A stretch of DNA of 56,964 nt from Rhodospirillales bacterium. Its GTDB lineage: Bacteria; Pseudomonadota; Alphaproteobacteria; Geminicoccales; Geminicoccaceae. Position 1 is the stretch's first letter, and each line of letters begins with the position of its first letter. The stretch is taken from assembly GCA_015490605.1 (NCBI GenBank), contig WFXL01000005.1:1-56964 (forward strand), given 5' to 3'. Under the pieces are notes generated by a model. That model searched no databases. It was given only the letters and a program-made list of their open reading frames with translations, and was not told the origin of the DNA. Positions 1,324-15,677 of this stretch are shown here, one piece after another. The position numbers and the translations under genes are program-made.

Positions 1324-1417
1324 GCTCCCTCCCTGATCCACGCGCCTCGGCCTCCATCTCTAGGGCTGGGGGAGGCGGAGTAAAGGCCGGATGGCGCGAT
1401 GGCGCCGGTGGAGCGGT

Positions 1418-1448
1418 GAAGAAAAGCGGGCGGCTCAGGGAGCCGCCC
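1418..1448 (-). terminator. Intrinsic-terminator-like hairpin on the minus strand, inside the rtcA/SBP divergent intergenic region
   Basis: The minus strand reads GGGCGGCU-cccug-AGCCGCCC (8-bp GC stem) followed by GCUUUUCUUC. No CDS lies upstream of it on that strand, so it would end a leader or sRNA. Confidence 0.5.
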
Positions 1449-1609
1449 GAGACTCACCATCGGCCAGGGAAGGAAGGGAACGCCGCGATCGCTGCCTCGA
1501 GCCGGCGTCTTACTTCCCGTCGCGCAAGTCCGAGGCTACCCCTTCCCCCGACGGGTTGGAACTGCTGCCGGCGAAAGGCGGCCATGCATTTCTGCATAGG
1601 AGGTGCGGC

Positions 1610-2698
1610 ATGTGGGAGGTGGACGGCGCGCTCGGGGAGGGCGGTGGCCAGGTGCTGCGTTCGGCGCTGGCGGCGGCGGCCGCCACCGGCACGCCCGTGC
1701 GCATCCGCCGTATCCGCGCCGGTCGCAGGCGCCCGGGGCTTCGGCCGCAGCATCTCACGGTGGTGCGTGCGCTGGCGGCGCTGACCGCGGCGGAGGTGGA
1801 AGGTGACCGGCTCGGCAGTCGCGAGCTGCTGTTCCGCCCGCGCACCCGGCCGACGTCCGGCGAGCATCGGTTCGATGTGGCGACGGCCCGGCGCGGCGGC
1901 AGTGCCGGGGCCGCCACGCTGGTGCTGCAGACCCTCCACCTGCCGCTGGTGCGCGCCGCCGGTCCGTCGCGGCTGGTGGTGCGCGGCGGCACCCATGTGC
2001 CACAGGCACCGCCCTTCGAACATCTGGCGGCAGTCTATGCGCCGGTGGTGAGCACGCTCGGCGCCGGCCTCTTTCCCCATCTTCAGCGTCACGGTTTCCT
2101 GCCGGCCGGGGGCGGGGAGATCCACGCCCGTATCACACCAGCGGCCACCATCCGTCCGCTCCAGGCCGAAGGGCCCACACCGGTGCTGCGCATCGTCATT
2201 CGGGCCGCGCTTGCGGGCCTTCCCGTCACGCCCGCAAGCCGGGCGGTGGCGCAACTGCGCGAACGGCTCGGTGACCTCGCGCCCCAGGTGCTGGTGGAGG
2301 TGCGGCGGGTTCCGGCCGATTCGCCCGGGGGCTATCTCTATGTGGCGGTGGAGCGGATGCGGCTGCCGGCGGGCTTTGTGGCCCTCTTCGGGCCTGACGG
2401 GGAGCCCGAGGCGCTGGTGGCGGATCTGGCGGCGGCGGTGCGCGCCCATCTTGCGAGCGGGGCGGTGGCGGACGGGCATCTTGCCGACCAGCTGATCCTG
2501 CCGCTGGCTTTCGCCGACGGTCCCTCGCGCTTGACCACCGAGCGGGCAAGCGGGCATCTGCTCACCCAGGCACGGCTGGTGGAAGCCCTGGGGCTTGCGC
2601 GCGTGCGGGTGGATGATTCGGTCCGACCGGTGCGGGTGGAGGTCATGCCACTGGCGTCGGGGGGTGAGGACGGAGGCTCGCGGGCTCCACGGGACTAG
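1610..2698 (+). CDS. rtcA: RNA 3'-terminal phosphate cyclase
   Basis: The translation from MWEVDGALGEGGGQVLRSALAAAAATGTPVRIRRIRAGRRRPGLRPQHLTVV matches the RtcA N-terminal signature (GEGGGQ.LR....I..IRA.R..PGL..QHL). ATG 1610 is preceded by AGGAGG at 1599..1604. The track ORF start at 1391 is too long. Confidence 0.9.
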   Translation: MWEVDGALGEGGGQVLRSALAAAAATGTPVRIRRIRAGRRRPGLRPQHLTVVRALAALTAAEVEGDRLGSRELLFRPRTRPTSGEHRFDVATARRGGSAGAATLVLQTLHLPLVRAAGPSRLVVRGGTHVPQAPPFEHLAAVYAPVVSTLGAGLFPHLQRHGFLPAGGGEIHARITPAATIRPLQAEGPTPVLRIVIRAALAGLPVTPASRAVAQLRERLGDLAPQVLVEVRRVPADSPGGYLYVAVERMRLPAGFVALFGPDGEPEALVADLAAAVRAHLASGAVADGHLADQLILPLAFADGPSRLTTERASGHLLTQARLVEALGLARVRVDDSVRPVRVEVMPLASGGEDGGSRAPRD

Positions 2699-3249
2699 CG
2701 ACCGGGACCGTCCGCTCTTGGCTGCGGGCCGCAGGTGGTCTGTTGGTTGATCCTGAGGGATCTCCCGGCGCCGGCCTGATCCCGGCGAGCACCCTCGGAT
2801 CTGAAGAGCTGTCGCAAGACTCCGCGACAACGAGCTGCGAATTCCGAATTAATAGACCGCAAGCGCAGGGAGGCACGGCGGGGTTGGCGTGGCGGTCGGG
2901 GCGAGGCGCGCGCCCGATGGTGGAGCCGGTGCCCGGGCTGTGGAACACAGCTGCACGCAACGGCAGCGCGGGGCCCGGATTCCCATCGTGTCGGGTTCCG
3001 CCCTCGTGTCCGCGCGCAAGGCGAACAACCCCTTGTCGCCATCAGCTCAGGAGCTTCTGAGGGCATGTTAACCGGATGTTGGGGATTTCGCGGCAGAATC
3101 CGCGGATGATGGGAAAGGTGCGCCGCGTCCCTGTAGTCGGCGGCACCTTCTCCACCATCCGAGGCAGGATGGCAGCGAGTCGTTAAGGAGTCGTGAAACT
3201 ATCCGTCATGAGGAAGCCATGAAGCTTTTCTGACCATCGTTGGGGAGCG

Positions 3250-4630
3250 GCGCGGGTTTTCTGAAGGTGCCGCGCAGGCTTTCTGAAGGGATAACCACTC
3301 GCTCGAGGCGTGGCCGAGGCCCGGGCGCGATGGGCGGGGAGGGCGTGCTCGCGCCTGTTCTCGGAAGCCCGCGGCATGGAGTTGGCTCCGGTGGGAAGCG
3401 GCCGCGCGAAGTCGCCACAGGGGATCGGGCGGCACAGCATGACGTATCGAGGGGACAGCTGGCGCATGGGCCCGCACGGCGAAGACGCCCGGCGCTAGGG
3501 ACCACTCTGCCTGTCACACCCCGGATCCCCGAACGGCAGGGTCGGGTGGTGCGACAGGGTCCACCTGCGTCCATCATGTGCATGATCGGCTTGCTTCTGT
3601 CCCCTCCTGGGACGAGAGAGTCGGCGTGCCGCAGGGAGACGTGTCTTGATCAAAGAGCGCTCGCGTCCGGCGTCGTGAGCGGTGGATCTGCATAGCGCTG
3701 TGAGATGGGTCACGCGTAGGACGGCGTCGCGCCCATTCCCGTGACGGACGGCTCGGCATGCCGTGGCCAGGAGTGTCTTGAATAGGGTGCGCTCGTGTCC
3801 GCCGCCGTATAAGGTGAATCGGCACCCCGTCACGAGACAGGTTCCAGGTCACATTTGCCATACGCTTTGGTGAGGAACGGCTCGGCATGCTGCGGCAGGC
3901 TGTGTCTCGAGCGGGGTGGGCGTGCTTCGGCGCTGTGAGGGGCAGATCGGCATTCCGTCGCAAGAGAGGTCTTCAACACGATGCCGTCACACACGCTTGC
4001 CTGACGGACGGCTTGGCATGCCTTGGTGAGGTGCGCTCAAGCGGGATGCACTTCCAGCCTCCGGGCGACGGGTCTGCATCTCGTCACCAGATGGGGCTGG
4101 AGCAAGTTCGAGTCGCCTGCGCTTCGTAATGGATAGCTCTGCAATACCGTAGCGAGGCCGGTTCCAAGCAGCATGCACTCCTCTTCTCCGGCGTGGGGCA
4201 CCTCCACATCCCGTCGCGAGCCGGGTCTCAACAGGATGTCGTCACGTACGCTTCCGTGACAGGCGGCTCGGCATGCCACGACGTCGCCCATCTCGAACAA
4301 GGCACACACCTTTCCGGCGCCGTGAGGGACGGATCTTCATACCGCCACGCAATGGATCTTGAGCAAAATGTATGCGCGTAGGCTGCTGTGACGGAGGAGT
4401 CTCCCTATCGTGGTGCGACTGGTTTCGACCAGCATGTGCTCGTGTACGCTACCGCGAAGACGAACGGATATGCATGCCGGAGCGAGTTGCGCCTTGAGCG
4501 GGGTCGACTGGCCTCCGACACTGCCAGAACCGGAGCCGTATAGCGTCGTGAGATGAGTCACGGGCAGATAGCTACAACCGAAAGGACAGATGTTCCCGGG
4601 CGAACGACGGCACGAGATGAATGGCTCTGC
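3250..4630. repeat. Array of >=10 degenerate ~130-nt tandem repeats (core GTGAC-GGACGGCTCGGCATGCC ... AGGnGTGTCTYGA), non-coding
   Basis: Clear units start at 3611, 3741, 3870, 4001 and 4256. Their cores are GGCGTGCC at 3623 and GGCATGC(C) at 3755, 3884, 4015 and 4270, with spacing 132/129/131/255 nt. Eroded copies lie at about 3262, 3373, 3531, 4136, 4392, 4472 and 4606. No frame has the GC3 bias of real genes here. The + frames hit stops in at least unit 3741 (TGA/TAG/TGA), although the + ORF 3887..4129 spans units 3870 and 4001. Confidence 0.65.
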
Positions 4631-4733
4631 CGGCTGCGCGCCGGACGCTCGAACGGCTGAGCCGGGGGTGCGCGAGGAAGGCGGCTGGGTGACGATGCCG
4701 ACCCCCGGTGACGCGACCGTGGTGCGAATCGGC

Positions 4734-5225
4734 TCACGGGTGGGAGCAGCCACGACCGAGGCCGCTGGCCGTCTGGGCCGGACCGCCCACCACGCTCAGG
4801 GACGGTGGCATCTCCGGATGGCCGAAGAAGCCGTCGAGCCGGACGATGGCGCCATTCTGCAGCACCACCACCAGGTCCTCACCATCCACCACATAGCGGG
4901 CCACGTCCGGGTGGAAGAAGGGCGCATCCAGCACCACCAGAGCACCCGCGGGTATGGGCACCACCCGTACGGCATTGGGCGGCGGCGGCTCGATGCGGAT
5001 CTCCGCAGGCGGGCCACCGGCGGTGGCCGCGGGTGCTGGGGGTGCGGTGATCGGCGCCTGGTCGGCAGGAGTCGCCGCGGTGCGGGCCGCGGCCTGCGGC
5101 TGACGGGACGGATGATCTCGGGCGAACGGCGGCTCGAGAAGCCGGGGGATGCGGGTCTGCCGGATCGGCTGCTGGAGGTGCACCAGCCCTGGCTGTGGGT
5201 CGCCCTGCAGCGGCGACAGACGCAC
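4734..5225 (-). CDS. Hypothetical protein, Pro/Ala-rich linker plus C-terminal beta-rich module resembling the N-terminal region of T1SS/RTX-type adhesins; probably a truncated remnant
   Basis: 163-aa ORF with very high third-position GC, which is a real coding signature. It contains the motif [42 protein letters not shown]. An in-frame TAG lies directly upstream of the GTG start. Confidence 0.5.
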
Positions 5226-5229
5226 CTAG

Positions 5230-5490
5230 GCCCTCGCGGCGCTCGGCATCGACCCCGGGGGGACCGTATCGCCCTCGATGTGGGCGCCTCCACCGGCGGC
5301 TTCACCCATGTGCTGCTGCACCATGGCGCCCGGCGGGTCTGTGCGGTGGATGTGGGCTACGGCCAGCTGGACTGGCGCCTGCGGCAGGATCCCCGGATGG
5401 TAGGCTGGAGCGCACCAACGCCCGCCCTCGTGACCGCACCCCCGTCGCGGCGCCGGTAGAGCTGGCGGTCGGCATGGATGGCGCCGACGG
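5230..5490 (+). pseudogene. tlyA: Fragment of TlyA-type rRNA 2'-O-methyltransferase/hemolysin A gene (frameshifted, lacks N- and C-terminal parts)
   Basis: The pieces sit in different frames: [11 protein letters not shown] / [46 protein letters not shown] / LERTNARP. Together they match the conserved TlyA core (..[38 protein letters not shown]). Confidence 0.6.
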
Positions 5491-5668
5491 GCTGCGGAGT
5501 CCGGCAATCACCGACCCGGCGGCCTGGCCAGGAGCCGGGAACGGCTGCAGGGGTGACCACCGCCTTGCCGGGTGCGTCGTGACGGGATGTCGGAAGGCGG
5601 CGCAGCGAACGGAGGATGGCGTGGCCCGGCAGGTCGGCGGGATGGCGGCCGCAGGGCCATGGCCCGTC

Positions 5669-5761: not shown

Positions 5762-8700
5762 CTAGCTGCACCCGGTGGTGCCGCCGCAGGTGACGCATTT
5801 CAGGCAGGTGCCATTGCGCACCAGCGTGAAGTTGCCGCACGACGGACACGGGTCGCCGGTAAAGCCCTGCAGCCGGGCCATCTCCACCCGTGTCTCGCGG
5901 CGGACGTCCGTGACCTCGGCCACCGCCACTTCACCCGCGGTGACCGGGGAAACCCGTTCGGCCGCGCCGTTGCGCGGCGCCTCCTCGACCACCTCGGCAT
6001 CGGCCGCGAGCTCGCGGAAGAGCGGCAGCTGACCCCGCAGGAAGCCGAGGCTTGCGATCTGCGCCACCGCATCGGGCATGATCCGCCCCTCCTCCACGCC
6101 GCGCCCGAGGGCATCATGGCGCAGCTGGGTGGGGTCCACATTGGCGAGATCGGTACGCCCGAGATAGGAGATGGCGAGCTCGCGGAAGATGTAGTCCAGG
6201 ACGGATGTGGCCATCTTGATGGAGTCATTGCCCTGCACCGGCCCCGAGGGCTCGAAGCGGGTGTAGGCGAAGGCCTCGACGAACTCCTCCAGCGGCACGC
6301 CATACTGCAGGCCGATGGAAATCGCGATGGCAAAGCAGTTCATCAGCGAGCGGAAGGCGGCGCCCTCCTTGTGCATGTCGATGAAGATCTCGCCGAGGCT
6401 GCCATCCTCATACTCGCCGGTGCGGAGATAGACCTTGTGGCCGCCGACGGTGGCCTTCTGGGTGTAGCCCTTGCGCCGGTTGGGCAGCTTCCGGCGGCGG
6501 CGCAGCTGGCGCGCCTTCTCCTCGGCGAGCCGCTCGGCCAGCGCCATGATGCGCTCGCTCTGGCTGCGCAGCTCGTCTTCGCCGCCCTCATCGCCGCCAT
6601 CCTCACCATCGTCGAAGCGGATCACCGACAGCGGCTGCGAAAGCTTGGAGCCGTCGCGATAGAGGGCGAGCGCCTTGAGGCCCAGCCGCCAGCCCTTCAT
6701 GTAGGCATCCGCACAGTCCTGCACGGTGGCGTGGGCTGGCATGTTGATGGTCTTGGAGATGGCGCCGGTGATGAAGGGCTGGGCCGCCGCCATCATGCCG
6801 AGATGGGCGTCCACCGAGAGAAAGCGCCTGCCGAGCCGGCCGGTGGGGTTGGCGCAGTCGAACACCGGCAGATGCTCGGGCTTCAGATGCGGCGCCCCCT
6901 CGACGGTCATGGTGCCGCAGACATAGCGGTTGGCTTCCTCGATCTGCTCGGGCGTAAAGCCGAGCGCCCGTAGAAGATCGAAGTCCGGCCGCCCATACTG
7001 CGCCTCCTCAAAGCCCAGCCGCTGGAGCAGCTCATCCCCGAGCGACCAGCGGTTGAAGGCGTATTTGAGATCGAACGCGAGGGGCAGGCTCTTTTCGATC
7101 CGCGCCAGATCCTCCTCGCGGAAGCCCTTGGCCTTCAAACTTTCGGGGTTGATGTGGGGCGCCCCCTCGAGGGTGCCGTGGCCCACGGCGTAGCGCACGA
7201 TCGCCTCGATCTGGTGTTCCTCATAGCCGAGGCTCCGCAGCGCCTCCGGCACCAACCGGTTGATGATCTTGAAGAAGCCGCCGCCAGCGAGCTTCTTGAA
7301 CTTCACCAGCGCAAAGTCGGGCTCGATGCCGGTGGTATCGCAGTCCATCACCAGCCCGATGGTGCCGGTGGGGGCCACCACCGTCACCTGGGCGTTGCGC
7401 AGACCAAAGCGCTCGGCCTTCGCCACCGCCTCATCCCACGCCCGCATGGCGGCCTCGGCCAGGCCCGGCACCGGCACCCTAGCCGCCTCCAGCGGCACCG
7501 GACGGATGTGGAGATCCTCATAGCCATCGCGCGCACCGTGGGCGGCCCGGCGATGGTTGCGCAGCACCCGAAGACAGGCCTCGCGATTGTCGGCGAAGCC
7601 GGCAAACGGCCCCTGCTCGCGTGCCATCTCGGCGGAGGTGGCATAGCAGGTGGCGGTCATGAGGGCGGCGATGGCAGCACAATAGTTGCGCCCCTCGTCA
7701 CTGTCATAGGGGATGCCCGAGGCCATCAGCAGCCCGCCGAGATTGGCGAAGCCGAGGCCGAGGGTGCGGAACTTCCATGACAGTTCGGCGATGCGGGCGC
7801 TGGGGAACTGCGCCATCGCCACCGAGATCTCGAGCACCAGCGTCCACAGCCGCACCGCGTGACGGAAGGCCTCGATGTCGAAGGTGTTGTCCTCGCGGCG
7901 GAACTTGAGGAGATTGAGAGAGGCCAGATTGCACGCGGTATCATCGAGGAACATGTATTCCGAACAGGGGTTGGAGGCGTTGATCCGCCCCGAGTTCGGA
8001 CAGGTGTGCCAGTCGTTGATGGTGGTGTCGTACTGGATGCCGGGATCGGCGCTGAACCAGGCGGCATAGGCCATGCGGTCCCACAGCTCGCGGGCGCGCA
8101 CCGTCTTCGCCACCTTGCCGTCGGTGCGCCGGATCAGCGCCCATTCGCGATCCTCCAGCACCGCCTGCATGAAGGCGTCCGACACCCGCACCGAATTGTT
8201 GGAGTTCTGGCCCGAGACGGTGGCATAGGCTTCGCCGTCCCAGTCGGTGTCCCACACCGGGACTTCCATGTGGCGATAGCCCTGCCGGGCGAACAGCAGG
8301 ATCTGCTGGAGGATGGCATCCGGCAGCAACGCCTTGCGCGCCTCGCGCAGCGCCTTGCGCAGTTGCGGATTGCGCCGGGGCTCGAAGCGGTCTTCGGCCG
8401 GCAGTTGGGAATCGTGGCAGGCAGCGAGGATGGCGTTGGCATGCCGTTCCAGAAGGCGCGAGCCCGCCACCAGCTCGGCCACCTTCTGCTCCTCCACCAC
8501 CTTCCAGTCGATGAATTTCTCGATGTCCGGGTGGTCGATGTCCACGATCACCATCTTGGCGGCGCGGCGGGTGGTACCGCCGGACTTGATGGCGCCGGCG
8601 GCGCGATCACCCACCCGGAGGAAGCTCATGAGGCCGGAGGAGTGGCCGCCGCCCGAAAGGGGTTCGCCCTCGCCCCTGAGCGGCGAGAAGTTGGTGCCGG

Positions 8701-9391
8701 TGCCGGAGCCATATTTGAACAGCCGCGCCTCCCGCACCCACAGGTCCATGATGCCGCCGGGGTTCACCAGATCGTCGCGGATGGACTGGATGAAGCAGGC
8801 GTGCGGCTGTGGCCGCTCATAGGCAGTGGTGGAGGGGTGGACCTCGCCGGTCTCATGGTCGGCCCAGTAGTGGCCCTGGGAGGGGCCGTCGATGCCGTAG
8901 GCCCAATAGAGGCCGGTGTTGAACCACTGGGGCGAGTTGGGCGCGCCCATCTGCATCGCCATCATCCAGCGGAGCTCGTCGAAGAAGGCGCGCGCATCCT
9001 CCTCCGTGTCGAAATAGCCGCACTTCCAGCCCCAGTAGGTCCAGGTGCCGGCGAGCCGGTCGAACACCTGACGGGCGCTGCGCTCACCGCCGAATCGCGC
9101 CTCCTCCGGCAGGGCGGCGAGGGCTTCGGGATCCGGCTCCGAGCGCCACAGCCACGCCGGCACGCCCTCTTCGGGCACGCGCCGCAGCACGGCGGCCACG
9201 CCCGCCTTGCGGAAGTACTTCTGGGCGAGCACGTCCACCGCCACCTGCGACCAGTGGGCGGGCACCTCGATGTCCTCGAGCCGGAAGACCAGGGTACCGT
9301 CGGGATTGCGGATCTCGCTGGTGGCCCGACGGAAGGCGATCTCCGCGTAGGGATCCTGCCCGGCCCGCGTAAACGCCCGCTCGATCTTCAT
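5762..9391 (-). CDS. nrdJ: Vitamin B12-dependent ribonucleotide reductase (class II)
   Basis: 1209-aa ORF. The N-terminus [32 protein letters not shown]..., the long RNR core and the Cys-rich tail [28 protein letters not shown] are typical of alphaproteobacterial NrdJ. Confidence 0.95.
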
Positions 9392-14115: not shown

Positions 14116-15033
14116 ATGCAGATCATCGGAGCCAGATCCAACGGATCCGCCAACGGCGCCGCCGATTCGTGGATCAAGGACGGCAGCACCGCCACCTTCA
14201 TGCAGGATGTCATCGAGGCCTCGCGCGAGACGCCCGTCCTGGTGGACTTCTGGGCGCCTTGGTGCGGGCCCTGCCGCCAGCTGACGCCGGTGCTGGAGAA
14301 GGTGGTGCGCGCCGCCAAGGGGCGGGTGCGGCTGGTCAAGATCAATGTGGATGAGAATCCCGAGCTCGCCCAGCAGCTCCGCATCCAGTCGGTGCCCACC
14401 GTCTACGCCTTTCTGCAGGGCCAGCCGGTGGGCGGCTTCGCCGGGGCGCAGCCGGAAAGCCAGATCAAGCGCTTCATCGAGCAGCTTGTGGGTGGGCCGC
14501 TTGCAGCCGATGTGGAGGCGGAGCTGGAGGCCGGGCGCAGGGCGCTTTTGGAGGGGCGGGCGAGTGAGGCCTTCGTCCACTTCCGCCGGGTGGTGGACCA
14601 GCAGCCCGACCAGGGCGAGGCCTGGGGCGGGCTGGTGCGTGCGGCGCTGGCCCTCGGGCGGCCGGAGGATGCGGCCAAGCTCCTGGAACAGGCGGAAAAG
14701 CACGCTTCCGGCCATGCCGCGGTGGCGGGCGCCAGGGCGGCGTTGGAGATCGCCCGCGAGGCCGGCGAGCTTCCCGATGAGGCGAGCCTGCGCCAGCGGA
14801 TCGCCGCCGATCCCTACGACTTCGAGGCCCGCAGCCAGCTTGCCACGCGCCTGTTCCTCGCCGGCCGCTTTGAGGAGGCCTTCGAACAGCTGCTCGACAT
14901 CGTCCGGCGCGATCGCACCTGGCGCGACGATGGCGCCCGCAAGCAGCTTTTGCGGTTCTTCGACGCCCTCGGGCCCGACCATCCGGCCGCGCGCAAGGGG
15001 CGCATGCAGCTGTCGTCGCTGCTGTTCGCCTGA
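14116..15033 (+). CDS. Thioredoxin-domain plus TPR co-chaperone (YbbN/CnoX-like)
   Basis: It has the thioredoxin fold with VLVDFWAPWCGPCRQLTPVLEKV, followed by a TPR-like helical C-terminal half. Confidence 0.85.
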   Translation: MQIIGARSNGSANGAADSWIKDGSTATFMQDVIEASRETPVLVDFWAPWCGPCRQLTPVLEKVVRAAKGRVRLVKINVDENPELAQQLRIQSVPTVYAFLQGQPVGGFAGAQPESQIKRFIEQLVGGPLAADVEAELEAGRRALLEGRASEAFVHFRRVVDQQPDQGEAWGGLVRAALALGRPEDAAKLLEQAEKHASGHAAVAGARAALEIAREAGELPDEASLRQRIAADPYDFEARSQLATRLFLAGRFEEAFEQLLDIVRRDRTWRDDGARKQLLRFFDALGPDHPAARKGRMQLSSLLFA

Positions 15034-15677
15034 TGTCGCCGGCGGCGCACGATCTGCCGCGCCACATCCCCATCTTCCCGCTGCGCGGCTCGGTGCTGAT
15101 GCCCTACGGGCGATTGCCGCTGCACATCTTCGAGCCGCGCTATCGGGCGCTCGTGCGGGACGCGTTGGCGGGGGAGGGGATGTTCGGCATGATCCAGCCG
15201 CGCCCCGGCCACGACGCCAACCCCTGCCCGCCGCTCTACGTCACCGGCTGTCTTGGCCGCATCGCCGCCCACCGGCCGCTGCCGGATGGGCGCTTTCTCA
15301 TCGTGCTCGCCGGCATCTGCCGGTTCGATCTGGTGGAGGAGCTGGCGGTGGAGACCCCCTATCGTCAGGTGGAGGCGTCCTACGCCCGCTGGCAGGGGGA
15401 TCTCGCCCCGGTGGGCGAGGCGCCGGAGCTGGCGGCCCGGCTGCTGCCGCGGATCCAACGCTATCTCGACATGCTGGAGGTGGAAGTGGACCGCCGCGCC
15501 CTCGCCCGCATGCCCTTCCCGGTGCTGCTGGCGATGCTGGCCACGGTGCTGCCGTTCGATCCGGAGGAGAAGCAGGCGCTGCTCGAGGCGCCCGATCTCG
15601 CGGCCCAGGCGGCGGTGCTGGAGGGGTTGCTGGAGATCGGCCTTGCCGGTGATACTTCGAGAGGACGGCCCAACTGA
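15033..15677 (+). CDS. LON peptidase substrate-binding (Lon N-terminal) domain protein
   Basis: IPIFPLRGSVLMPYGRLPLHIFEPRYRALV is the Lon N-domain signature. The TGATG start/stop overlaps the preceding gene. Confidence 0.85.
   Translation: MSPAAHDLPRHIPIFPLRGSVLMPYGRLPLHIFEPRYRALVRDALAGEGMFGMIQPRPGHDANPCPPLYVTGCLGRIAAHRPLPDGRFLIVLAGICRFDLVEELAVETPYRQVEASYARWQGDLAPVGEAPELAARLLPRIQRYLDMLEVEVDRRALARMPFPVLLAMLATVLPFDPEEKQALLEAPDLAAQAAVLEGLLEIGLAGDTSRGRPN

Follow-up and report, generated by a model that had tools for sequence, protein, structure and literature searches.

Mycobacterial MIRUs are minisatellites that vary in copy number (PMC3635867). The tandem array described here shares several features with such bacterial minisatellites and variable-number tandem repeats (VNTRs): it consists of direct repeats arranged head to tail between genes, with 14 adjoining units whose length falls within the range of about 10-100 bp, and its copy number varies between close strains (14-15, 10, and 0 units). 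It also differs from them in several ways. The units of MIRU and VNTR loci are usually highly similar, whereas those of the array share about 50% identity on average and are too dissimilar for slippage or unequal exchange to continue. While MIRU units recur at many loci, the array is found at a single locus, and unlike MIRU/VNTR loci it contains no small ORFs coupled to the flanking genes. In addition, strains differ here by bulk deletions and not by the stepwise slippage of MIRU/VNTR arrays. We consider the array to be, with fair probability, a lineage-specific, old, and degenerate minisatellite that is decaying roughly neutrally. It would most likely lack a sequence-dependent function and be neither an RNA gene, nor a protein gene, nor a structured element.

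Tandem organization is also a feature of other systems. Eukaryotic satellite DNA features higher-order repeats and diverged monomers. Every second and every fourth unit of the array is likewise slightly more identical, but this signal is weak (55% vs. 49%), the array extends over 1 kb and not megabases, and it bears no evidence of homogenization. Batteries of tandem small RNAs include the NsiR1 arrays of cyanobacteria and the CcsR1-4 or 'cuckoo' RNAs of Rhodobacter. The array resembles these batteries in its tandem intergenic units (60-90 nt in size) and in having one hairpin with a CCUCC loop nearby; in contrast to them, its units have no promoter or terminator of their own, no conserved hairpins, no CCUCC loops, and no Rfam match.

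Several further classes have been considered and rejected. The period of about 66 bp is within the range of a CRISPR repeat plus spacer, yet no repeat is identical between units and the would-be spacer half is homologous between them; searches with Pfam and PADLOC matched no cas gene among the ORFs lying no more than about 3 kb away, nor among ten further genes of the window (the whole 57-kb stretch of DNA that was analysed). Dispersed repeats of the REP/BIME type do not fit, as no other copy is present in the window or in the 23 loci fetched for comparison. An iteron or centromere-like array is not suggested by the neighbours, which are rtcA, an orphan ORF, a tlyA remnant, and nrdJ, with no rep or par gene, nor by the degenerate units. 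In setting aside CRISPR, REP/BIME, and iterons, the preliminary description of this locus is supported. ToxI-like repeats of type III toxin-antitoxin systems are near-identical, are about 36 nt long, and lie beside an endoribonuclease toxin gene. The units here are 66 nt long and diverged, and the ORFs flanking the array have no PADLOC match.

Dimensions and sequence of the array

The array is located in a spacer of about 3 kb without a credible gene. The spacer is bounded by rtcA (Pfam RTC, E = 6e-66), the stop codon of which is at 2698 as first reported, and by nrdJ, which occupies 5762-9391 on the minus strand. The nearest named homologues of nrdJ are from "bacterium HR40" and Geminicoccaceae (70-78% identity). 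Other genes of the window encode an NDUFA12-type protein, a plant-type glutamate-cysteine ligase, a eukaryote-type NADP isocitrate dehydrogenase, ClpA, and HtpG. Taken as a whole, this gene content and the nrdJ homologues point to an alphaproteobacterial chromosome of high GC content.

When the stretch 3201-4700 is compared with itself, the self-match reaches its maximum at a lag of 66 (35.6% vs. a mean of 27.1%, 5.8 sd), while a lag of 132 reaches only 3.1 sd. The tandem repeat that had been proposed is therefore real, but its period is about 66 nt and not about 130 nt. The longer period was read because the odd-numbered units are better preserved and every other unit is slightly more similar. 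This serves as a caution, in that one unit in two has diverged beyond recognition by eye and the true period was missed as a result.

Profile searches with nhmmer define the extent of the array. Into the first profile went 10 units, and it recovered the four that had been left out, at 4322, 4127, 3676, and 4389 (E = 6.6e-07, 5.5e-06, 0.0027, and 0.0028 as a set). After iteration the profile returned exactly 14 adjoining units (E = 1.5e-12 to 2e-04), and the rest of the 57-kb window has no match better than E = 0.27. Tandem Repeats Finder (TRF) gives no call for the array. By self-comparison and profile search the tandem array is real and far beyond chance. The units start at 3609, 3675, 3741, 3807, 3870, 3935, 4001, 4063, 4126, 4191, 4256, 4322, 4388, and 4457, and their lengths in the same order are 66, 66, 66, 63, 65, 66, 62, 63, 65, 65, 66, 66, 69, and 66 nt (mean about 65.5 nt, range 62-69). 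The five clear copies noted earlier at 3611, 3741, 3870, 4001, and 4256, with their spacing of 132/129/131/255 nt, were placed correctly. Of the extent originally assigned to the array, 3250-4630, the part from 3609 to 4522 stands, with a weak 15th unit to 4590, whereas nothing repeat-like was found by profile search at 3250-3608 and the eroded copies placed at 3262, 3373, and 3531 have no profile support. A repeat search also found the pair 4129-4142 and 4617-4630, the second member of which falls in the possible 16th unit, a segment that the profile does not detect. The features of the locus are summarized in Table 1.

Table 1. Position of the array, its notable units, and the surrounding features within the window, with the basis of each assignment.
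Feature	Position	Strand	Basis
14-unit head-to-tail tandem array, ~66 bp per unit	3609..4522	.	self-match at lag 66, nhmmer profile, unit alignment, pairwise identity
Unit 3, best preserved	3741..3806	.	best profile score (E = 1.5e-12); highest identity to other units; full 10-bp palindrome CGGCATGCCG
Doubtful eroded 15th unit	4523..4590	.	nhmmer E = 0.41 over 4540-4567; 31-51% identity to other units
Possible further eroded (16th) unit	4606..4670	.	by eye only; begins ATGAATGGCTCTGC, like unit 9
Distal units (from the end of unit 10 to unit 15), missing in L018/L019	4232..4622	.	alignment with L018/L019
Strain-variable segment around the array	3063..5338	.	L014: 1.02 kb of unrelated DNA in place of ~2.28 kb (blastn)
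Orphan ORF, 163 aa, with sub-threshold BapA_N-like stretch	4734..5225	-	Pfam E = 7.3e-4, 19.7 bits vs. cutoff 27
tlyA-like (FtsJ) remnant, 5'-truncated and frameshifted	~5105..5500	+	Pfam FtsJ fragment, three-frame translation, alignment with L018

The consensus of the 66-bp unit is GTGAnGGACGGnTCnGCATnCCGTnGCGAGAnGGGTCTCGAGCAGGATGnnCTCGCnTnCGCnnCn, with a mean column identity of 63% in the unit alignment. In pairwise comparison the units share about 50% identity on average, where base composition alone would give 27%, and the most similar pair is 73% identical. Similarity spans the whole unit, and none of the columns is invariant among the 15 aligned units. Identity is 55.6% between units two apart and 55.4% between units four apart, vs. 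48-49% at odd lags, which weakly suggests a two-unit higher-order pattern in which the even-numbered units make up a more diverged subfamily. The repeat had been described as old and strongly diverged, a view that is supported here, and it is specific to this locus; it would be an unusually old and diverged minisatellite to survive in a bacterial chromosome. A unit identity this low implies an age far beyond the split of the strains, an observation that runs counter to neutral decay.

The array in related genomes

The loci of relatives were found through exact-protein look-ups, and 23 loci were fetched. A scan of the GTDB species representatives with RtcA revealed no close relative, the best match being 48% identical. 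The closest locus, L013 (GCA_027046885.1), is 99.97% identical to the window over 15.2 kb and has zero differences in the array. As L013 is an independent assembly with the same array, the array is not an assembly artefact. Two other loci, L018 (an ENA metagenome scaffold) and L019 (GCA_015488175.1), have a right flank that is 97.3% identical and carry 10 orthologous units, each of which matches its positional counterpart best (93, 93, 87, 87, 87, 89, 79, 67, 75, and 74% identity). This lineage is without 4232-4622, which holds the distal five units, and without 4759-5105, which makes up most of the 163-aa ORF. As the assignment of units is ambiguous, its difference from the window cannot be read as a neat two-unit (132-nt) indel. 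In L014 (GCA_054032635.1), the flanks are 95.6% and 92.9% identical and rtcA is kept, but the segment around the array is replaced by unrelated DNA in which profile search detects no array units.

The preliminary description had asked whether orthologous rtcA-nrdJ intervals carry the array, and the answer differs by lineage: 14-15 units are present in the window and in the identical L013, 10 in L018 and L019, and none in L014. Since L014 keeps rtcA without the array, the connection to an RNA-repair gene that had been raised is not supported. In more distant relatives, the DNA of which is 79-86% identical across nrdJ, different genes follow nrdJ. Comparison of these genes with the spacer by tblastn gave only chance-level matches, the best of which was Arg-rich (E = 0.052, 14/43 identities).

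The rate of change along the locus has been assessed between the window and L018. Divergence at third codon positions is 6.9% in rtcA and 7.4% in an ssuA-like gene, and in successive pairs of units it amounts to 6.1, 12.4, 11.5, 24, and 25.5%. The high divergence of the distal units continues into the non-repeat flank at 4623-4758, which is about 78% identical, and it may be the mark of a mosaic, imported segment as opposed to hypermutation specific to the repeat. Distal divergence that reflects imported DNA would not report the local substitution rate, which is a further point counter to neutral decay. Between close strains the spacer has been rearranged, shortened, or replaced, and the sequence of the array changes at least as fast as synonymous sites. 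This comparison with relatives is the decisive evidence, and as judged from the aligned sequences the array is dispensable, variable in copy number, and free of purifying selection as a whole. A lack of conservation in relatives had been named in advance as pointing to neutral junk, and the sequences compared here largely fit that outcome.

Other parts of the spacer have degenerated as well. The orphan ORF on the minus strand (4734-5225) matched only itself among 5.8 billion proteins and is probably not a functional gene. Because this ORF and the broken tlyA remnant both reside there, the spacer can be regarded as a zone of gene decay. It is plausible that the array began with the tandem duplication of a segment of about 66 bp, that slippage or unequal recombination then probably multiplied a two-unit block of about 132 bp, and that the copies subsequently drifted to about 50% identity. 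The array would now be decaying and undergoing trimming in a spacer that is prone to recombination and deletion. If the neutral reading is right, the array has little biological importance of its own. Its value lies in flagging such a spacer and in a possible use for telling strains of this Geminicoccaceae-like lineage apart. With regard to persistence, bacterial deletion bias should purge 1 kb of useless DNA, yet the array is retained in two lineages, which is an observation counter to neutral decay.

Searches for related arrays have been extended to other replicons. No further copies are present in the 57-kb window or the 23 fetched loci, and blastn with a word size of 11 found nothing similar in 72,556 plasmids or 50,697 phages. 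A scan was also performed with a pattern of 20 fixed bases, which matches five of the array's own units and for which 0 matches are expected by chance. No viral contig matched this pattern, although differently diverged arrays could escape such an exact pattern. A lone metagenomic match, in L017 (30% GC), was dismissed as a chance match given that the contig has no units.

A putative binding core

The units are not equally diverged along their length. Among paralogous units the best-conserved stretch is a core at alignment columns 13-24, TCnGCATnCCG, in which T13, C17, T20, and C23 are conserved in 14 of the 15 units and where unit 3 has its palindrome. This core could be taken to mean that the array presents 10-15 copies of a recognition motif, ancestrally the palindrome CGGCATGCCG, as a putative protein-binding scaffold on DNA or on a long transcript, while the spacers between the motifs drift and whole units are born and lost. 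Such a scaffold is a possibility that we consider unlikely. Between orthologues the core changes about half as frequently as the rest of the unit (11/111 vs. 109/540; Fisher p = 0.010), and an unbiased sliding-window scan of orthologue changes has its minimum at columns 13-24 (p = 0.025). The persistence of the array in two lineages despite its great age is also consistent with a scaffold. However, between orthologues the core still diverges by 9.9% overall and by 17.8% in distal units, no less than synonymous sites (about 7%), and the clustering of paralogue conservation at the core is marginal and not significant (p = 0.08-0.11). The full core is matched exactly in only two units, and the motif is not enriched outside the array, with 3 matches vs. 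about 1.5 expected for the whole window. Furthermore, the relative that is about 95% identical has no array, and in the window no candidate partner gene adjoins the array. In our view, the roughly two-fold slower change of the core is a lead and not a finding, and the aligned units give a weak hint of constraint. If this weak constraint were real, it would indicate a new repeated binding platform.

A more specific version of the scaffold, which we hold to be more doubtful still, is that only the core is selected. The array would then be a fast-turnover, lineage-specific platform with 10-15 constrained cores, each a remnant of CGGCATGCCG, that are putatively recognized by a protein, either in DNA or in a long non-coding RNA. 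Under selection on the core alone, the array would appear almost neutral in standard tests.

Known binding and regulatory motifs have been compared with the unit. NrdR boxes, CcrM sites, and sigma-54 promoters do not fit when examined by eye against their consensus sequences. The consensus unit contains CAGGATG, which resembles the repeats of CsrB. A CsrA sponge was rejected, as GGA is kept at this position in only 3 of the 15 units when the alignment is read.

Protein and RNA readings

Given that 66 nt corresponds to 22 codons, the array could in principle be what remains of a long-inactivated gene whose protein had 22-residue repeats. In one version, the array would be the body of an adhesin with the orphan ORF at 4734-5225 as its N-terminus. 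Some features are in line with a protein-coding past: the period is a multiple of 3, as are 10 of the 14 unit lengths (the other 4 are not); the consensus unit can be read through in the plus frame (VTDGSACRGETGLEQDALASAA); the orphan ORF, with its weak BapA_N-like match, lies on the strand that would lead into the array; and tlyA is a second pseudogene in the same spacer. These features are outweighed by others, and we judge a repeat-protein relic to be quite improbable. All six frames of the actual array are broken by stops, and no three-base phase is detectable across the unit columns, whether in variability (p = 0.55) or in GC content (p = 0.52), in accordance with the preliminary description, which had recognized no credible coding frame. 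When consensus repeats were translated in the five open frames, only spurious, sub-threshold Pfam fragments and no repeat family were found, and the translations had 0 matches at E <= 0.001 among 5.8 billion proteins. The minus-strand ORF at 3574-3963 exists as reported but has 0 matches among 1.84 billion representatives. As for the orphan ORF, it has no homologue, scores below the Pfam cutoff, and is mostly missing from the 97% identical relative. None of the relatives among the compared loci has an intact gene at the position of the array. Without a codon phase or a homologue of either the real or the consensus translations, the decayed adhesin that had been offered as an alternative is not supported.

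The suggestion that the units are tandem paralogous small RNAs that form a battery, or that modules of two or three hairpins make up a single structured RNA, is scarcely credible in light of the searches and folding analyses that follow. With Rfam 15 at gathering score, no covariance model matches anywhere in the window. At E <= 10 there are four sub-threshold matches at chance level (miRNA-type models and a Burkholderia sRNA), none of them within the 14-unit array. A scan for tRNA and tmRNA in the window returned none. RNAalifold predicts 0 pairs for 15 units. Folding of the whole array compared to dinucleotide shuffles gives z = -0.58 for the plus strand and -0.31 for the minus strand, with no excess stability, and the 14 units folded singly range from z = +1.53 to -3.01 with a mean of about 0 and with structures that are inconsistent between units. 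A sigma-70 consensus scan found 0 promoter-like sites in the array, and no terminators occur within units, the single terminator-like site being at 3238, outside the array. Likewise, one would not expect an RNA battery to change at the neutral rate or faster, as the array does, or to prove dispensable to a close relative.

The base pairing that favours an RNA is seen in the consensus unit, which has the inverted repeats ACGGC-N7-GCCGT and CGAGA-N4-TCTCG. Pairing is seen in about 70% of the cells, compared to 34-42% when the partner columns are slid. Column composition suffices to produce this level, as column shuffles give an expected 68.6 ± 2.0% and reach the observed value in 121 of 500 cases. 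The same two inverted repeats in 24 units pair at 72.2% vs. 70.5 ± 1.4%, a value reached by 63 of 500 shuffles. The hairpin at the unit boundary, GTCAC-N10-GTGAC, behaves differently in that shuffles reach its pairing in 6 and its covariation score in 3 of 500 cases; the hairpin was chosen post hoc, and kinship of the units alone can yield such values. G-U-compatible changes favour the plus strand. Substitutions between the window and L018 in the putative stems kept pairing in 10 cases, lost it in 12, and gained it in 13, so that orthologue changes fail to preserve the pairs and lend no support to the boundary hairpin, which is otherwise suggestive. The position of this hairpin above shuffles, albeit post hoc, and the slower core (p = 0.010) can be noted as observations counter to neutral decay.

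After comparison with close relatives, a striking repeat with palindromic cores showed neither an RNA nor a protein signal, which is a second caution to be taken from this locus. A final detail concerns the hairpins with CCUCC-containing loops that had been attributed to several units. No CCUCC loops occur within the units, and the hairpin GTCCC-CTCCT-GGGAC that had been cited as an example is present at about 3600-3614, upstream of unit 1. This hairpin is the single one of its kind near the array, and it is not conserved in the 97% identical relative, where its loop reads GCUGCU.

A predicted hairpin segment shared by three lineages

Within the variable spacer, the ~3-kb interval between rtcA and nrdJ, a segment of ~130 nt is the only sequence common to the window, L018 (a metagenome scaffold, ~97% identical in flanking DNA, with 10 array units) and L014 (GCA_054032635.1, a ~95% relative without the array). 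The L014 copy is inverted relative to its flanks. RNAalifold folds the segment into a single long imperfect hairpin of 42 pairs (-43.8 kcal/mol). Pairing is retained despite one-sided changes at 14 pairs, mostly G-C to G-U substitutions that pair on the plus strand only, while one change is compensatory and five pairs are broken. The segment is absent from Rfam. The candidate readings are a small structured RNA and a recombination-associated hairpin, and the segment holds more promise than the array.

Coordinates of features in and beside the variable spacer
Feature	Position	Strand	Remarks
rtcA	window 1391-2698	+	
Shared segment, ~130 nt	window 3067-3197; L018 15487-15617; L014 14374-14504	+; -; +	
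Two adjoining 22-nt direct repeats	window 3244-3287		GGAGCGGCGCGGGTTTTCTGAA and GGTGCCGCGCAGGCTTTCTGAA, 82% identical
Orphan ORF, 163 aa	window 4734-5225	-	C-terminal half BapA_N-like, below threshold (Pfam)
tlyA-like (FtsJ methyltransferase) pseudogene	window ~5105-5500	+	5'-truncated, at least one frameshift

Possible exchange and duplication around the array

The non-coding stretch directly 3' of rtcA (2699-3066) is 99.7% identical to L018, whereas the genes on either side diverge by ~7% between the two at third codon positions; identity to L014 is 80-93%, with a well-kept block at ~2885-2975. The cause is either a recent recombination event or an element under constraint. Window 4001-4758, which covers the distal array units and non-repeat flank, forms an island of about 22-26% divergence from L018. 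The island lies between segments that are 94-99% identical, a pattern that suggests import from a more distant array-bearing lineage. In L014, filler DNA (14504-15083) takes the place of the array and contains a short direct repeat of its own, GGATGT(T/C)GTGGCTCATCCGCC(C/T)ACACC, in two copies ~85-90 nt apart, the second preceded by a Shine-Dalgarno-like AAGGAGG. The locus of array and filler appears to be duplication-prone. The 22-nt direct repeats, ~320 nt upstream of the array, overlap the sole terminator-like site and are also kept in L018.

Probable gene remnants and the possible origin of rtcA

The tlyA-like pseudogene is convergent with nrdJ, and L014 retains only its portion right of window 5338. 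The orphan ORF has no homologues among 5.8 billion proteins. Its C-terminal half shows sub-threshold similarity to the prefix domain at the N-terminus of giant adhesins. The 97% relative lacks window 4759-5105, inside this ORF, which is probably a gene fragment or spurious. Across 185,579 species-representative genomes, rtcA has no close relative; its best match, at 48% identity, is in an Anaerolineae MAG. More distant relatives of the source lineage are missing the gene at the corresponding locus, which suggests that rtcA was horizontally acquired.
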